A DNA stretch of 14,211 nt. It comes from Thermoanaerobaculia bacterium. GTDB lineage: Bacteria; Acidobacteriota; Thermoanaerobaculia; Multivoradales; UBA5704. Within the stretch, counting starts at the first letter, position 1. The number at the start of each line of letters is the position of its first letter. Location: positions 1 to 14,211 of the forward strand of contig JBGAGQ010000108.1 in the NCBI GenBank assembly GCA_044226625.1. Reading direction: 5' to 3'. This document shows positions 4,535-13,574 of the stretch, piece by piece. The translations under genes and the position numbers were made by a program. The notes under the pieces are model-generated. The model was not told where the DNA came from. It did not search any database and saw only the letters and a program-made list of their open reading frames with translations.

Positions 4535-7624
<3,090 letters not shown>

Positions 7625-7633
7625 GGGGGCGCC

Positions 7634-8458
7634 ATGCCCGAGCTTCCCGAGATCGAGGTCCTGCGCCGGAGCTTGGAGCCGCACGTGCTCGGGGATCGGA
7701 TCGAGCGGGTGGAGGTTCGGGACGGGCGCCTGCGCGAGCCGGTCGACGCGCGCCAGCTGAAAAAGCGGGTGGCCGGTCATGGGATCGAGCGGTTGGATCG
7801 GCGAGGTAAGTACCTGCTGCTCGACCTCGACGACGGCTGGACGCTCGCGATCCACCTCGGCATGAGCGGCCGGTTCACCCTGGTTCCGGACGACGAGCCG
7901 CCCGAGGCGCACGAGCACATGGTGTTCCATCTGGCCTCGGGCAGGAAGCTGCGCTTGCGCGATCCGCGGCGGTTCGGGCTCGTCTTCGCGTACGAGACTG
8001 CGAAGCGGGAGGCCGATCCCCACTTCGCACATCTCGGCGTCGAGCCGCTCGCCTCTGGATTCTCGGGCGCGACGCTACGCGCGGCGGCTTGCGGGCGCCG
8101 AGGGCCCGTGAAGGCCTTTCTGATGGACGGGACCGTGGTGGTCGGCGCGGGCAACATCTACGCCGCCGAGTCGCTCTTTCGCGCGCGGATCCACCCGCTG
8201 CGCTCGGTCGCGCGGATCTCCGCGGAGCGGTGGGACCGCCTCGCCGACTCCCTGGTCGAGGTGCTTTGCCAGGCGGTCGAGCAGGGCGGGACGACGCTCA
8301 ACGACTTCGCCGACGGCGAGGGGCGGAGCGGGTACTTCCAGGTCTCGCTTTCGGTCTACGACCGCGAGGGCGAAGCGTGCGAACGTTGCGGCCGAACGAT
8401 CCGGAGAGTGGTCCTCGGCAACCGGAGCACGTACTTCTGCCCGGGCTGCCAGCGATAG
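7634..8458 (+). CDS. mutM: Formamidopyrimidine-DNA glycosylase / AP lyase (intact copy, 274 aa)
   Basis: N-terminal [28 protein letters not shown], an H2TH region '[18 protein letters not shown]', and a C-terminal zinc finger CERC...[11 protein letters not shown]. Confidence 0.95.
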
Positions 8459-8469
8459 ACTCTCCATCT

Positions 8470-8649
8470 ATGCTCTCCACCATCGCCTCAACTCAGCCCC
8501 GCGTCCTCGGCGTCGCGGGAGGGACCGGTTCGGGAAAGACCACCGTCGTGCGCTCGATTCTGGAAGCGGTCGGCCGCGACCGGATCGCTTTGATCGAGCA
8601 GGACAACTACTACCGGGACGTCGATTGGACGACCGACGCCTCGCTGCTC
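8470..8649 (+). pseudogene. udk: 5' fragment (60 codons) of uridine kinase, fused in-frame to the carB tail
   Basis: MLSTIASTQPRVLGVAGGTGSGKTTVV...DNYYRDVDWTTDASLL matches the start of the full gene at 9649, then diverges at 8650. Confidence 0.85.
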
Positions 8650-8760
8650 GACATCCCCTGCATCACCACGCTCTCCGGCGCGATGGCCTGCGCCGAAGGG
8701 ATCGCCGCGCTCGGTCTCGACGCGCTGGAAGTCCGGTCGCTCCAGAGCATCAACCGGTAG
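8647..8760 (+). other. carB: Displaced C-terminal ~37 codons of CarB
   Basis: (L)DIPCITTLSGAMACAEGIAALGLDALEVRSLQSINR* has the typical CarB ending (IP..TT...A...V.SLQ). Joining it to 4535-7624 gives a ~1067-aa protein of normal CarB size. Confidence 0.9.
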
Positions 8761-8769
8761 GGGGGCGCC

Positions 8770-9592
8770 ATGCCCGAGCTTCCCGAGATCGAGGTCCTGC
8801 GCCGGAGCTTGGAGCCGCACGTGCTCGGGGATCGGATCGAGCGGGTGGAGGTTCGGGACGGGCGCCTGCGCGAGCCGGTCGACGCGCGCCAGCTGAAAAA
8901 GCGGGTGGCCGGTCATGGGATCGAGCGGTTGGATCGGCGAGGTAAGTACCTGCTGCTCGACCTCGACGACGGCTGGACGCTCGCGATCCACCTCGGCATG
9001 AGCGGCCGGTTCACCCTGGTTCCAGACGACGAGCCGCCCGAGGCGCACGAGCACATGGTGTTCCATCTGGCCTCGGGCAGGAAGCTGCGCTTGCGCGATC
9101 CGCGGCGGTTCGGGCTCGTCTTCGCGTACGAGACTGCGAAGCGGGAGGCCGATCCCCACTTCGCACATCTCGGCGTCGAGCCGCTCGCCTCTGGATTCTC
9201 GGGCGCGACGCTACGCGCGGCGGCTTGCGGGCGCCGAGGGCCCGTGAAGGCCTTTCTGATGGACGGGACCGTGGTGGTCGGCGCGGGCAACATCTACGCC
9301 GCCGAGTCGCTCTTTCGCGCGCGGATCCACCCGCTGCGCTCGGTCGCGCGGATCTCCGCGGAGCGGTGGGACCGCCTCGCCGACTCCTGGTCGAGGTGCT
9401 TTGCCAGGCGGTCGAGCAGGGTGGACGACGCTCAACGACTTCGCCGACGGCGAGGGGCGGAGCAGGTACTTCCAGGTCTCGCTTTCGGTCTACGACCGCG
9501 AGGGCGAAGCGTGCGAACGTTGCGGCCGAACGATCCGGAGAGTGGTCCTCGGCAACCGGAGCACGTACTTCTGCCCGGGCTGCCAGCGATAG
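8770..9592 (+). pseudogene. mutM: Second mutM copy in the native position, frameshifted by two 1-nt deletions (likely sequence errors)
   Basis: The protein is identical to 7634-8458 until 'WDRLADS'. Deletions at ~9387 and ~9422 shift the frame, and the zinc-finger end lies in another frame (9401-9592 ORF). Confidence 0.85.
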
Positions 9593-9662
9593 ACTCTCCA
9601 TCTATGCTCTCCACCTGCCCGGGCTGCCGGCGATAGAGCTCTCCATCTATGCTGCTCTCCAC
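9571..9662 (+). repeat. Imperfect 44/48-bp tandem duplication spanning the mutM stop and udk start
   Basis: ctgcccgggctgccagcgatagactctccatctatgctctccac (9571-9614) is followed by ctgcccgggctgccggcgatagagctctccatctatgctgctctccac (9615-9662). The second unit is absent from copy 1. Confidence 0.92.
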
Positions 9663-10293
9663 CATCGCCTCAACTCAGCCCCGCGTCCTCGGCGTCGCGG
9701 GAGGGACCGGTTCGGGAAAGACCACCGTCGTGCGCTCGATTCTGGAAGCGGTCGGCCGCGACCGGATCGCTTTGATCGAGCAGGACAACTACTACCGGGA
9801 CGTCGATTGGACGACCGACGCCTCGCTGCTCCACCACAACTTCGACCATCCGTCGGCGATCGACAACGAGCTGCTGGTCCAGCACGTCCGCTCACTGCGG
9901 GAGGGGCGCGCGGTCGAGGTGCCCATCTATGACTTCGTGCGCCACCGCCGGACCGACCGGACTCGTATCGTCGAGCCGCGGCCGGTCGTGCTGCTCGAAG
10001 GGATCCTCATCTTCGTCGAGCCGTCGCTTCGGGCGATCCAGGATTTCAAGGTCTACGTCGACACCGACGCGGACATCCGCCTGATCCGCCGCTTGACCCG
10101 CGATCTCGACGAGCGCGGACGGACGGTCGAGGACGTCCTGCGCCAGTACCAGGAGACTGTCCGTCCGATGCACCTCGAGTTCGTCGAGCCGTCGAAGCGG
10201 TGGGCGGACATCATCATCCCCGAAGGGGGCGAGAACCGCGTCGCGCTGGAGATGGTGGTCGCCCGGGTCGAGCAGCTGCTCGGCCAGCCGTAA
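9649..10293 (+). CDS. udk: Uridine kinase
   Basis: Walker A GVAGGTGSGKTT, QDNYY, NFDHPSAID, PIYDF, LEGIL, DADIRLIRRLTRD..ERGR, VRPMHLEFVEPSKRWADIIIPEGGEN. Confidence 0.96.
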   Translation: MLLSTIASTQPRVLGVAGGTGSGKTTVVRSILEAVGRDRIALIEQDNYYRDVDWTTDASLLHHNFDHPSAIDNELLVQHVRSLREGRAVEVPIYDFVRHRRTDRTRIVEPRPVVLLEGILIFVEPSLRAIQDFKVYVDTDADIRLIRRLTRDLDERGRTVEDVLRQYQETVRPMHLEFVEPSKRWADIIIPEGGENRVALEMVVARVEQLLGQP

Positions 10294-10307: not shown

Positions 10308-13300
10308 ATGCCGACCGATTTCGACACGCTCTCCGCGGAGAGCTTCCTCGCCGTCTGCAAGGAGGGGAGCGCCGCGGCCTACCGTCGTTTCGAGCAGGTC
10401 CTCGCCGCTCTGGACGATCTCGGAACTCGGGCCGCGGCGCGCCGATTTCTCGCCCGGATCGCCGCGGCGCTCGCCCGCGCGACGGATGCGGGGGAGGATC
10501 CGGCGGCGTTCCATTTTCAGATCGGCACCTTGGCGCTCGGCCGGGAGGCGGACGCCCGCCGGGAGGGGGCGGACGGCGCCCAGCTGCTGTTGCTCCAGTT
10601 CCCGAGCGTCTTCGCGCCGGAGGAGTGGTCGCGGACCTTCTTCGAGGGGCTCGCCCGCTATTCGCCGCACGACTTCGCGGGGCGGACGCTCGCCGAGCTC
10701 GGCTGCGGCAACGGCTGGGTGACGCTCGCACTCGCCCGCCGCTCGGCGCCCGAGAAGCTCTACGGGCTCGACATCAATCCGCGGGCGATCACCTGCGCCC
10801 GGCTCAACCTCTACCTGAACGCCCTCGCCGCGGACGGAGAGCCGGTGCTCGACGCCGATGGCAAAAGCCTGCTCGATCGCGTGGAGTTCCACGAATCCGA
10901 CCTGCTCGGCTGGGTGCGCGAGCGAGGTCTGAAGCTCGATCGGGTGATCGGTTGCATCCCGCAGGTACTCGACCCGAACCTGGGGGAGATCCGAGCGGGA
11001 GCGGAGCTCTCCGACGAGCTGCTCGTCTCGCTGAGCAACTACACCGGCCACCAGGGCTATCTCGAGGATCTCTTCGGCCTTGGGCTGGTCGCCCGCGCGC
11101 TCGAGGAGGCGATCGAGGTGATGCGACCCGGCGGTTGGGTGGTCCTCAATCTGGGAGGACGCCCTGGGCGCGAGATCCTGCGTCAGATGTTCTGTCGGCG
11201 CGGGTTCTCGATCCGGCCGATCTGGTCGACCCGGATCGGCCAGGCGGACGACACCGACATCTCTCCGCTCGCCGAGATCGAGCGGAGCGGACGGCATCGG
11301 TTCGAGTTCTACCTCGGAGTCCACAGCGACGAGCCGGTCTCGGCGCGGACCGCCCAGGCCTACGCCCGTGCCGGCGGGGCGATCTATCACTCGCTCACCG
11401 TGTTCGATGGGAAGCTCCGGTTCCCCGAAGCGATGAATCTCGTCTTCGCCGCGCTCCATGGCGAGGTGTGGCGGCCGGTGCGCGACGCGCTCGACCTCGA
11501 CTACGAGGACGACGCTCGGGTGGAGGAGAAATCCGCGTTCCTCGCTCGGCTCGCGCGGTTGCTGCCGGAGCGGCGTGCCTTCCCCTACGGCGAAACGCTC
11601 GGCGCGCAACCGTTTCGGCACCGCTTCGCGGAATATCTGGAGCGCTATTTCGCGATTCCGTTGGCGGCCGAGAACCTAGTGGTGCTGCCGGAGCGGGCCT
11701 CGGCCTTGCGCAACCTGTTCGCGCTCTACGCTCCGGCGCTTTCGCTGGTCCACCCTTCGCTCCAGGTGGGGGCGGCCGGCGTTTCCCCGGAGGCCCTGGG
11801 GTTCCAGGGGGCTCCCGCCGAGCTGCTCGAGTGTCCTCTACGGGTCGATCTCGCGGTCAAGCTGATCGCGGCGCTCCGCCCGCAGCTCGTCGCCACCACC
11901 CTCGATCCGTCCGACGTTCGGTCGCCCGACTCGTTCCTTCGCCTGGTCGAGGCGGCCGGGCGGGTCGGAGCCCGCCTGCTGGTCGACATCTCGCCGTTCT
12001 TCGAGCTGGACAGCACGCCCGGCAGCAACGGAGTCCTCCAGGCGCTTTCGGAAGGACCGCTTCCCGCGCACGTCGCGATCCTGTGCGGCCTGGTCCGGAA
12101 TCGCGTCTATGAGGATCTGGAGGTCTGTTTCCTGCTCACGGAGGATCGCGAGCTGGTCGCCGCGCTCGAGGGGGCCGCCGAGCTGACCTACAGCCGGGTC
12201 CCGATGCTCACCCAGGAGTACTACGACACGATCCTCGCCGAGCTGCTGAGCTTCCGCCTCGATCCGTTGGGATCGGCGGTGCCGGGGCGGCGAACGCGCG
12301 CGGCGAGCCTTCCGCCCATCGCGGGGGCTGCCCCCGCCTTGCCGATCGCCGAGCGATGCCGGATCGCGTTCGCGCATCCGGCGCTCGTCGCCGAGAACCT
12401 GCCGCGGACGGCCGCGACGATCCGTTTCGACTACGGGGAAAACGCGCTCGCTTCGCCCACCCCGGTGGCGACCAGCCTGTTCGAGGCATTCGCCCGTCGC
12501 GAGCTATCGACCGCCGAGACCGATCCGTCGCCGGAGCTTTCCCAATTCCTGCGCCGCCGCTTCGGGCTCGACGTGGGAGGCGGCCGGCTCGCGCCGCGTT
12601 TTGTCTACGGGCTCGGGGTCGCGCCTCTTTTTTCGAGCCTCGCCGCCGCCTGCGCGGCCGAAGGGGGGACGTTCGTCTTCCCACGGGGCTCCTACGGCTT
12701 CTTCGTCGCGACGGTGGACTTCTTCGGCGGATCCAGGCGCTGGATCGCGACCGAGCGGGCGAACGGCTTCAAGGTGACACCGACCGAGCTGGAAGCCGCG
12801 CTCGCCGGCGTCTCCAGGCCCTGGTTGTATTTGAACGGCCCGGCGGTCAACCCCACCGGCAGCCTGTACTCGAGCGACGAGATGGCCGCCCTCCTCGCCG
12901 TCGCGGCCAAGCACCGGGCCCGGGTGGTGATCGACATCTTGTTCTCCGGCCTGGAGCACGCCGAGCCTGTGCCGTGGGACCTCGGTCCCGTGCTCGCCGA
13001 TCATGCGCTGAGCCTGGTGGTCCTGGGAGGCGTTTCCAAGGAGCTCGCGGCCGGCGGGCTCCGCTTCGGCTTCGCCTGGTGCCATGGGGAGGCGATCGAG
13101 CGGGCGCTGCTGCGCGGGCTCACCTCGGTCCCCCACGCGACGACGCGTTTCGCCGCAAAGCGGATCTTCGCCGCCCTGAACCGCCCGAGCGTGCGGACGC
13201 GGGAGGAGCTCTCCGCGCAACGTCAGCTCCTGGCCGAGCGTGCGAACCGCCTGGTGGCGGTCCTCGCCGATTGTGGTTGGGAGCCGCTCCGCCCTTCGGG

Positions 13301-13574
13301 TGGTCTGTTTCTGGTCGCCCGCCCCGGTGCCTATCTGGGGCGGAAGCTCGAGGTCGCGACCTCGATGGGTCTTCGGGAGTGGACCTTGGACAGCGAGAAC
13401 ATCGCGGAGGCGATGTTCTGGGGGGTCGACCTGATGATCAACGACAGCCGGTGGACCGGGATCCCGGAGCACTGTCGATTCGTCCTTTCGGTCGTGGAGG
13501 ATGTTTTCGAGGAGGGGTTGCGCCGCATCCGGGCTTTTTGCGAACGGGTGACCGGGGGTTCGAACGCGCCCTGA
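10308..13574 (+). CDS. mmt: Full-length plant-type methionine S-methyltransferase (1088 aa): N-terminal SAM methyltransferase plus PLP-aminotransferase-like C-terminal region
   Basis: The likely start is ATG 10308, 14 nt after the udk stop. Motifs recognised from plant MMT and bacterial MmtN: PSVFAPEEWSRTFFEGL, ELGCGNGW, YGLDINPRA, NLYLNAL, LLDRVEFHESDLL, GCIPQVL, LSNY..QGYLEDLFGLGLVARALEE, NLGGRPG, QADDTDISPLAEIER...RFEF, SARTAQAY. The C-terminal class I/II aminotransferase motifs are GPAVNPTG, VIDILFS and GVSKELAAGGLRFG. Confidence 0.9.
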   Translation: MPTDFDTLSAESFLAVCKEGSAAAYRRFEQVLAALDDLGTRAAARRFLARIAAALARATDAGEDPAAFHFQIGTLALGREADARREGADGAQLLLLQFPSVFAPEEWSRTFFEGLARYSPHDFAGRTLAELGCGNGWVTLALARRSAPEKLYGLDINPRAITCARLNLYLNALAADGEPVLDADGKSLLDRVEFHESDLLGWVRERGLKLDRVIGCIPQVLDPNLGEIRAGAELSDELLVSLSNYTGHQGYLEDLFGLGLVARALEEAIEVMRPGGWVVLNLGGRPGREILRQMFCRRGFSIRPIWSTRIGQADDTDISPLAEIERSGRHRFEFYLGVHSDEPVSARTAQAYARAGGAIYHSLTVFDGKLRFPEAMNLVFAALHGEVWRPVRDALDLDYEDDARVEEKSAFLARLARLLPERRAFPYGETLGAQPFRHRFAEYLERYFAIPLAAENLVVLPERASALRNLFALYAPALSLVHPSLQVGAAGVSPEALGFQGAPAELLECPLRVDLAVKLIAALRPQLVATTLDPSDVRSPDSFLRLVEAAGRVGARLLVDISPFFELDSTPGSNGVLQALSEGPLPAHVAILCGLVRNRVYEDLEVCFLLTEDRELVAALEGAAELTYSRVPMLTQEYYDTILAELLSFRLDPLGSAVPGRRTRAASLPPIAGAAPALPIAERCRIAFAHPALVAENLPRTAATIRFDYGENALASPTPVATSLFEAFARRELSTAETDPSPELSQFLRRRFGLDVGGGRLAPRFVYGLGVAPLFSSLAAACAAEGGTFVFPRGSYGFFVATVDFFGGSRRWIATERANGFKVTPTELEAALAGVSRPWLYLNGPAVNPTGSLYSSDEMAALLAVAAKHRARVVIDILFSGLEHAEPVPWDLGPVLADHALSLVVLGGVSKELAAGGLRFGFAWCHGEAIERALLRGLTSVPHATTRFAAKRIFAALNRPSVRTREELSAQRQLLAERANRLVAVLADCGWEPLRPSGGLFLVARPGAYLGRKLEVATSMGLREWTLDSENIAEAMFWGVDLMINDSRWTGIPEHCRFVLSVVEDVFEEGLRRIRAFCERVTGGSNAP

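Follow-up and report, generated by a model that had tools for sequence, protein, structure and literature searches.

Bacterial plant-type methionine S-methyltransferases retain an aminotransferase-like cofactor site that is degenerate in plants and may serve a second activity

The gene at 10308..13574 (forward strand) of contig JBGAGQ010000108.1 from a Thermoanaerobaculia bacterium (assembly GCA_044226625.1) encodes a product of 1088 amino acids plus stop which, judged from its sequence, is a bacterial plant-type (Group III) methionine S-methyltransferase (MMT) built of three modules. The whole contig of 14,211 nucleotides was analyzed and is referred to as the window; all coordinates below are on its forward strand. 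An N-terminal S-adenosylmethionine (SAM)-dependent methyltransferase domain (aa 1-395, 10308..11492) is followed by a middle domain (aa 396-700, 11493..12407) and by a C-terminal domain with a class I/II aminotransferase fold (aa 701-1088, 12408..13571; hereafter the C-domain). Because the residues of a pyridoxal 5'-phosphate (PLP) site in the C-domain are intact in bacteria, and the key lysine has been lost in plants, we propose a second activity for the bacterial enzymes. The reading that the C-domain of bacterial MMTs is a PLP-binding, working second site for an alpha-amino acid is given a probability of about 0.55.

A first-pass annotation, made from the DNA sequence alone, had pointed to four aminotransferase motifs in the C-domain, and all of its residue positions and coordinates were exact in the translated open reading frame. 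These are NGPAVNPTG (aa 843-851, 12834..12860, with N848 at 12849-12851), VIDILF (aa 874-879, 12927..12944, with D876 at 12933 and F879 at 12942), GVSKELAAGGLRFG (aa 908-921, 13029..13070), which contains S910, K911 (13038-13040) at the Schiff-base position, E912 and R919 (13062-13064), and HCRF (aa 1055-1058, 13470..13481), where R1057 (13476-13478) takes the position of the arginine binding the alpha-carboxylate. The annotated range began at 12420, that is at residue 705, among the first residues of the aminotransferase domain. Two more elements belong to the site. Y796 (12693..12695) falls, in 6f35 and 4my5, at the Trp/Tyr of 'P.P.W/Y', a position which presumably stacks on the cofactor ring, and DYGEN (aa 708-712, 12429..12443) contains E711 and N712, which are invariant in bacteria, lost in plants and located at a predicted interface described below. 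In HMMER alignments with solved aspartate aminotransferases, K911 was aligned to the Lys of 'SKAYAMTGWRIGY' / 'AKAFAMTGWRIGY', in agreement with its earlier assignment as the Schiff-base lysine of class I aminotransferases. Alignment with solved aminotransferases likewise placed N848 in register with the Asn of NPSG/NPTG and R919 with the Arg of G.R.G, and in 'DDMY' / 'DEIY' the Asp lay opposite D876 and the Tyr opposite F879; the Tyr that the family has three residues past the Asp (D..Y) is thus replaced by Phe. We take the equivalents of K911, N848, D876 and R919 to be the residues binding the PLP cofactor, with Y796 and S910 completing the set; in this family the Asp contacts the pyridine nitrogen, the Asn contacts O3', and Ser and Arg bind the phosphate. 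As a set of sequence motifs, this combination is far beyond chance.

The fold assignment is consistent across methods. The C-domain matched PF00155 with 93.4 bits (cut-off 19.7, E 2.1e-26), the C-terminus matched aspartate aminotransferase 6f35 at E 8.5e-16 in a HMMER search of the PDB, and a profile of the C-domain (alignment A5) matched 4my5 at E 4.2e-27. An AlphaFold2 model based on 115 homologues reached a mean predicted local distance difference test (pLDDT) score of 92.3 and a predicted template modelling (pTM) score of 0.91, and a Foldseek search of the PDB with the C-domain retrieved the class Ib aspartate/prephenate aminotransferase 6f77 (E 2.9e-19, target-normalized TM score 0.80). 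A search of the ESM Atlas returned generic aminotransferase clusters only. Class Ib aspartate, prephenate and aromatic aminotransferases (6f77, 6f35, 1bjw and 4my5) are thus the best matches in both fold and sequence, with their Lys, Asp, Asn, Arg and C-terminal Arg in register with the MMT C-domain. The two differ in that identity is only ~20%, that Phe stands for Tyr and that the MMT domain has one extra residue in the NP.NPTG loop. Moreover, the class Ib enzymes are plain homodimers, whereas the MMT C-domain is fused behind a methyltransferase and what appears to be a degenerate copy of itself.

The motif set is a property of the bacterial family. Among 115 full-length or near-full-length bacterial homologues with 36-81% identity to the query, K911 is kept in 113, and the two exceptions (P0054 and P0116) cover about half of the query and look frameshifted. 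N848, D876, F879, Y796 and R919 are each present in 115/115, R1057 in 113/115 and S910 in 106/115, and E912 is an invariant acidic residue. When 1.84 billion cluster representatives were searched exhaustively with a profile, 235 matched at E 1e-30 or better. The best 150 of these 235 included 125 with the C-domain, in which the K911 column held Lys in 111, a gap in two and another residue in 12, corresponding to Lys in 111 of the 123 representatives with a residue there; the eight-residue signature YNDFSKRR was found in 91 of the same best 150. A second, deeper bacterial clade (P0230, P0237 and P0248; ~700 bits) also retains S-K, G-G-L-R, NP.G and D-E-I-F. The phyla with Group III MMTs include Acidobacteriota, Bdellovibrionota/Oligoflexia, pleurocapsalean cyanobacteria, Kangiellaceae and Bacteroidota, among others, and the closest relatives of the window's protein come from metagenome-assembled genomes (MAGs) of Acidobacteriota / Thermoanaerobaculia. 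The departure from D..Y had been flagged as a caveat by the first-pass annotation; the Phe is real, but since F879 occurs in 115/115 bacterial homologues it is a family trait and not a lesion of the window's copy. The sequence comparisons give good support to strong purifying selection on an intact set of cofactor and alpha-carboxylate residues in bacteria, and the intact PLP site is a feature of the whole bacterial family, not of the window alone. That the bacterial C-domain binds PLP is regarded as probable; whether the site would also be catalytic is evenly balanced.

Plant MMT (EC 2.1.1.12), such as that of Selaginella (XP_024516277.1), has the same length and three-module layout as the window's protein and is 41% identical to it over the full length, with the residues of the methyltransferase domain in common. 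The site in the C-domain differs. Among the best 120 of 227 matches to the Selaginella C-domain, of which those named by their source are land plants, the K911 column has Lys in 0/120 (Leu in 82, Phe in 20), the Y796 column has Asn in 113, and the R919 column has Arg in seven, Lys in 56 and Thr in 33; N848 is retained in 97, D876 in 119, F879 in 104 and R1057 in 120. The first-pass annotation had suggested that plant MMTs lack this lysine, and this was borne out also by single sequences identified by cluster look-up: Selaginella moellendorffii MMT (P0212) has T for K911 and E for R919 and has also lost N848 and Y796, Closterium (P0220) has P and Q, and Mesostigma (P0226) has Q and Q at these two positions. 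The annotation had further named two in silico observations that would speak against a second site, a K911 that varies among bacteria and plants that share the lysine, and neither was made. The 12 Lys-less representatives among the best 150 of 235 comprise three unnamed ones and nine with eukaryote names, namely Selaginella, Closterium, Mesostigma, Striga, Ginkgo, Kingdonia, a Brachypodium cluster, Adiantum and the amoebozoan Mastigella. The last of these, a 960-aa MMT-like protein from Mastigella eilhardi (P0228), has Ser at the Lys column; judged by this sequence, the degenerate site would extend to a second lineage of eukaryotes. The plant contrast is to be read with the caveat that a Lys occurs one residue downstream (S-L-K, column 912) in 81 of 110 angiosperm-dominated plant sequences; this Lys is absent from the lycophyte, liverwort and nearest unnamed sequences shown in the plant alignment.

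A comparison over all domains was made between 108 bacterial and 110 plant sequences, leaving out seven partial or frameshifted rows of alignment A1 and all plant rows shorter than 1000 aa. A position counted as conserved when at least 95% of the bacteria shared its residue, and as lost when fewer than 20% of the plants had that residue. This gave 148 conserved positions, 18 of them lost in plants. In the methyltransferase domain 72/76 were kept, and the four losses were the exchanges D to E, V to I, D to E and L to C. The middle domain had lost 3/24 (A624, S629 and R630), and the C-domain 11/48 (R706, G710, E711, N712, G770, Y796, F799, K911, R919, L1000 and F1001). E711 is replaced by Q in 100/110 plants and N712 by S in 88/110. 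Of the two acidic residues E711 and E912, neither has survived in plants, where each is lost or reversed in charge; Lys replaces R919 in 51/110. Plant MMTs thus mostly lack Y796, R919, E711, N712, S629 and R630 in addition to K911, and the bacterial protein has all of them. Based on the loss counts per domain, plants appear to have kept the methyltransferase and the scaffold and to have changed the site.

The direction of this change was addressed with a FastTree phylogeny of 61 rows and a quick IQ-TREE phylogeny (LG+G4) of 49 rows, both rooted on the second Lys-bearing bacterial clade. In both trees the plants form one clade (support 100) nested within the bacterial MMTs, and this clade is grouped with seven or nine bacterial rows, including the window's protein, with support of 98 and 97, values that come from fast trees with many rows of odd composition. 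Since outgroup and ingroup bacteria have the Lys and the plants are nested among bacteria, the Lys-less state of plants is most simply a secondary loss. Identity between the window's MMT and named streptophyte sequences (Selaginella MMT, Closterium and Mesostigma) is 41-45%, reaching 45% for the Closterium protein. Together with the branching of plants beside the bacterial group of the window's protein, the sequences suggest that plant MMT is of bacterial origin, near the Acidobacteriota-like lineage of the window.

The middle domain gave no Pfam match and, by single-sequence phmmer, no PDB match. When a profile of this domain (60 rows, alignment A4) was compared with the C-domain profile by hhalign, the two aligned with a probability of 79% and an E of 1.6e-5 over 202 columns in register, placing D560 on D876 and position 597 on K911. 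The middle-domain profile also weakly matched aminotransferases in the PDB (2zc0, E 0.001) through P-Y-x4-G-x2-(L/F)-R, and in the AlphaFold2 model its order of strands and helices parallels that of the C-domain. Based on the profile alignment, the weak PDB matches and the parallel secondary structure, the middle domain is a putative degenerate duplicate of the aminotransferase large domain. The NP of NPTG is missing from it, and only 62/108 bacteria have Lys at position 597, where the window has Arg. Two of its motifs are strongly conserved. Y427 of the 'PY' motif (11586..11588), in register with the Tyr that opens Y-x4-G-x2-LR in aminotransferases, is found in 108/108 bacteria and 100/110 plants, and S629 and R630 of the 'TYSR' motif (12192..12197) are each found in 108/108 bacteria, whereas plants have G in 107/110 and N in 79/110 at these positions.

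Both motifs lie at a predicted interface with the site of the C-domain. A complex prediction of the C-domain (with PLP) against the middle domain scored 0.93, and the best of three controls 0.00; the mark used was reached by 116/157 solved complexes and by 2/215 mismatched pairs. At least 86% of the contacts agreed between runs, and the pLDDT of the partner was at least 81. The middle domain contributes P426-Y427 and E625-T635, including S629 and R630, and the C-domain contributes D708, E711-S716, G770, Y796-F798, S910 and A914-R919. Plant-lost positions are modestly enriched at this interface (7/14, compared with 11/58 of the retained positions; Fisher one-sided p 0.023). In the aspartate aminotransferase dimer the partner subunit lines the active site, and the predicted interface is as expected of such a canonical dimer. 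The middle domain is thus predicted to pack on the C-domain in the manner of a second aminotransferase subunit, forming one composite site.

The mechanism that we propose for the bacterial enzymes would be as follows. The C-domain would bind PLP through K911 and share one composite site with the middle domain, whose contribution would be Y427 and S629-R630. The substrate of this site would be an alpha-amino acid connected with the reaction of the methyltransferase. The preferred substrate could be S-methylmethionine (SMM), the product of the first domain; we hold this assignment only tentatively and think it less probable than not. SMM would then either be transaminated with 2-oxoglutarate, giving 4-dimethylsulfonio-2-oxobutyrate, or lose dimethylsulfide (DMS) by gamma-elimination. 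The acidic E711 and E912 might face the sulfonium group, R630 might bind the carboxylate of the co-substrate, and Phe879 might raise the pKa of the aldimine, which would suit a sulfonium amino acid of low pKa. SMM is favored among candidate substrates because consecutive steps are commonly fused, because E711 and E912 are altered in plants and because of the analogy with 1-aminocyclopropane-1-carboxylate (ACC) synthase. Fusion of consecutive pathway steps is common, and ACC synthase has a Glu in a similar loop and a high aldimine pKa, which a Phe in place of Tyr would also raise. Of the reactions proposed for SMM, decarboxylation to dimethylsulfoniopropionate (DMSP)-amine is the least likely, since R1057 is kept, a residue that by what is known of the family would hold the alpha-carboxylate.

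ACC synthase (1b8g, 1m4n and 7dlw) has the class I fold and acts on a sulfonium amino acid, and the C-domain profile matched it at E 7.9e-21; this match is weaker than those to the aromatic and aspartate aminotransferases, so that ACC synthase is probably not the closest subfamily. It keeps the Tyr, and its acidic residue past the Lys and its 'AEN' loop may correspond to SKE and GEN of MMT. Fusion of an S-methyltransferase with the enzyme that follows it in the pathway has a precedent in DsyGD, a bifunctional enzyme of DMSP synthesis (PMC11306096). The domains of DsyGD are unrelated to those of MMT, the pathway is a different one and the second domain is not PLP-dependent.

Several points weigh against a working second site. 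Replacement of Tyr225 by Phe strongly slows transamination in aspartate aminotransferase, and Phe is present in every bacterial member of the MMT family. The proposed roles of E711, E912, R630 and F879 are transferred from the literature on ACC synthase and aspartate aminotransferase, and the placement of K911 in the pocket derives from alignment and fold. The complex prediction may have passed because aminotransferase homodimers of this kind have been solved, its partners are both taken from a single chain with PLP present but unscored, and the enrichment of plant-lost positions at the interface is, as said, modest. The 700-residue region probably has a PLP-independent role, since it is well conserved in plants without the Lys, and such a role could explain much of the bacterial conservation as well. 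No experiments on the C-domain of a bacterial MMT were found in the open-access full texts that were searched. As to pathway context, no decarboxylase, dehydrogenase or other gene of a DMSP route was a conserved neighbor of the MMT gene across 63 loci and the window, and according to Peng et al. 2022 (PMC9135737) only one of four bacterial-MMT strains made DMSP. The bifunctional enzyme envisaged in the first-pass annotation holds up well as far as an intact PLP site under selection is concerned, whereas catalysis and SMM as substrate would be hypothetical.

The invariant Phe, which would fit poor catalysis, and the lack of a pathway neighbor are both compatible with a C-domain that senses rather than converts its ligand, forming an external aldimine with Met or SMM and tuning the methyltransferase allosterically in the manner of MocR/GabR. 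In those sensors a fold-type I domain is fused to another function and keeps PLP without a classical enzymatic role; domains of this type with Lys and PLP and no turnover are documented for the MocR family, and the C-domain has a sub-threshold NCBIfam match to a MocR-like family (E 3e-11). Against this reading, the MMT protein has no helix-turn-helix or other DNA-binding domain by Pfam and its closest solved relatives are true enzymes. R1057, E711/N712 and S629/R630 on the substrate side are as invariant as the residues on the cofactor side, and plants run the methyltransferase without the PLP site. We consider a sensor unlikely. The same substrate-side residues bear on a transaminase acting upstream of the methyltransferase, which would convert 4-methylthio-2-oxobutyrate to Met, the last step of methionine salvage, and pass the product on. 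R630 and R1057 would suit a dicarboxylic amino donor and an alpha-carboxylate, class I aminotransferases carry out this step in other bacteria, and glutamine aminotransferase 1v2e, solved with that keto acid, was found at rank 41 of the Foldseek matches. Nothing in the site is specific for Met, however; the acidic E711 and E912 would suit a cationic group better than a thioether, and Phe in place of Tyr disfavors efficient transamination, so this alternative is considered improbable.

The plant enzymes raise another alternative, in which the C-terminal region is a scaffold or oligomerization module only and the bacterial motif set is inherited and functionless. Plants have kept the domain without the Lys, the ring-stacking Tyr and the Arg, and plant MMT is active according to the literature; the short MmtN is described in Peng et al. 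2022 as needing oligomerization for full activity. A functionless site would not be expected to stay invariant in 113-115 of 115 homologues whose overall identity is 36-45%, and in a second deep clade, and the lineage that did change the site lost many of its residues together. A scaffold with nothing more is therefore regarded as very unlikely, and a PLP-binding, working site on an alpha-amino acid is preferred.

MmtN (7vvv) has a methyltransferase domain homologous to that of the window's protein and is expected to catalyze the same reaction. The methyltransferase domain of the window, whose GxGxG motif is ELGCGNGW and which also matches Pfam methyltransferase families, aligned with 7vvv at E 5.3e-8 over residues 140-406 of P0001 in a HMMER search of the PDB. 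Unlike bacterial MMT, MmtN is ~300 aa long with no aminotransferase region, and according to Peng et al. 2022 the mmtN gene has downstream DMSP genes linked to it, a linkage that bacterial MMT lacks.

The MMT family and its presence in bacteria are already known. Peng et al. 2022 (PMC9135737) named the plant-like bacterial MMTs 'Group III' and reported that they are unlinked to DMSP, nonribosomal peptide synthetase (NRPS) or Met-cycling genes and that it is difficult to predict what purpose SMM serves in the bacteria that make it. The neighborhoods analyzed here, the window and 63 loci after four of 67 (L007, L016, L057 and L064) had been dropped as partial, agree with this lack of linkage. 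Recurrent neighbors were confined to a single group of related loci, mostly Silvanigrellales-like and Oligoflexia, and the largest shared family was present in 17 of them. Pfam identified the recurrent neighbors as ribosomal protein genes, rpoB and kinases, except for two families that gave no match. We also considered the fate of SMM. The homocysteine S-methyltransferase domain PF02574 was found in frames of 1176-1251 aa in the window's genome (contig C93:166084-166953) and in four of five other MMT genomes, and one MMT genome had an extra PF02574 frame of 647 aa. The ~1200-aa frames are taken as probably MetH-like, and the PF02574 search of the six MMT-bearing genomes revealed no stand-alone SMM:homocysteine methyltransferase. 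As PF02574 occurs mainly in these MetH-like frames, a plant-style cycle of MMT and homocysteine methyltransferase is not evident, and SMM would therefore need another fate in MMT bacteria.

No discussion of the cofactor site of bacterial MMT, of its loss in plants or of the duplicated half-domain was found in the open-access full texts that were searched. The intact and selected PLP site leads to the testable idea that bacterial MMTs may not stop at SMM. If true, they would be an added source of DMS or of DMSP precursors in soils, freshwaters and sediments, the 700-residue aminotransferase-like tail of plant MMT would be the relic of a bacterial bifunctional enzyme, and the bacterial protein would represent a fold-type I enzyme with its dimer partner replaced by a dead in-chain copy. 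At its fullest, and speculatively, the proposal is that bacterial plant-type MMTs are two-step enzymes with an in-chain pseudo-dimer, converting Met to SMM and then transaminating or cleaving it with PLP, which would provide a DMSP-independent route to dimethylsulfide or the missing second step of the methylation pathway to DMSP; the ancestor of land plants would have acquired the gene from bacteria related to that of the window, and the second site would then have been switched off with SMM synthesis kept. We would not put this extended scenario above a minority possibility.

The MMT frame is open from a GTG at 10200, and the ATG at 10308 corresponds to M37 of this longer frame in the translation; the same ATG is the start of the product on record (P0002, 1088 aa) and of all homologues. 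The layout of ~1050-1100 aa with a C-terminal aminotransferase-like region is common to the 115 homologues, and 'methionine S-methyltransferase' is the JGI product name of homologues. Seven longer proteins of 1470-1800 aa (P0281, P0283, P0286, P0290, P0296, P0297 and P0304) contain the methyltransferase, middle and aminotransferase modules; in these long forms the modules are preceded by 550-1100 aa of N-terminal sequence that matches no Pfam family, and none is found among the Lys-less representatives.

The window is an entire 14.2-kb contig (C119) of a 6.6-Mb genome in 133 contigs. Its other genes encode an FtsX-type permease, a ClC channel, and the products of carB, mutM and udk, the last on the same strand as MMT with a gap of 14 nt between its stop and the MMT start. 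This gene of the uridine-kinase/PRK family (9649-10293) is directly upstream of MMT. A counterpart lies no more than a few kb from MMT in another 11 loci, of which 10 belong to the Silvanigrellales-like group, and coincidence is possible. Positions 7623-8652 and 8759-9834 form a tandem duplication of ~1.1 kb with 99-100% identity, comprising mutM and the 5' end of udk, which may be an artefact of MAG assembly or a real recent event. The duplication fuses the carB frame (4535-8458) with a mutM copy into one CarB-MutM frame of 1307 aa, and the second mutM copy (8770-9636) has a divergent C-terminus and is probably frameshifted.

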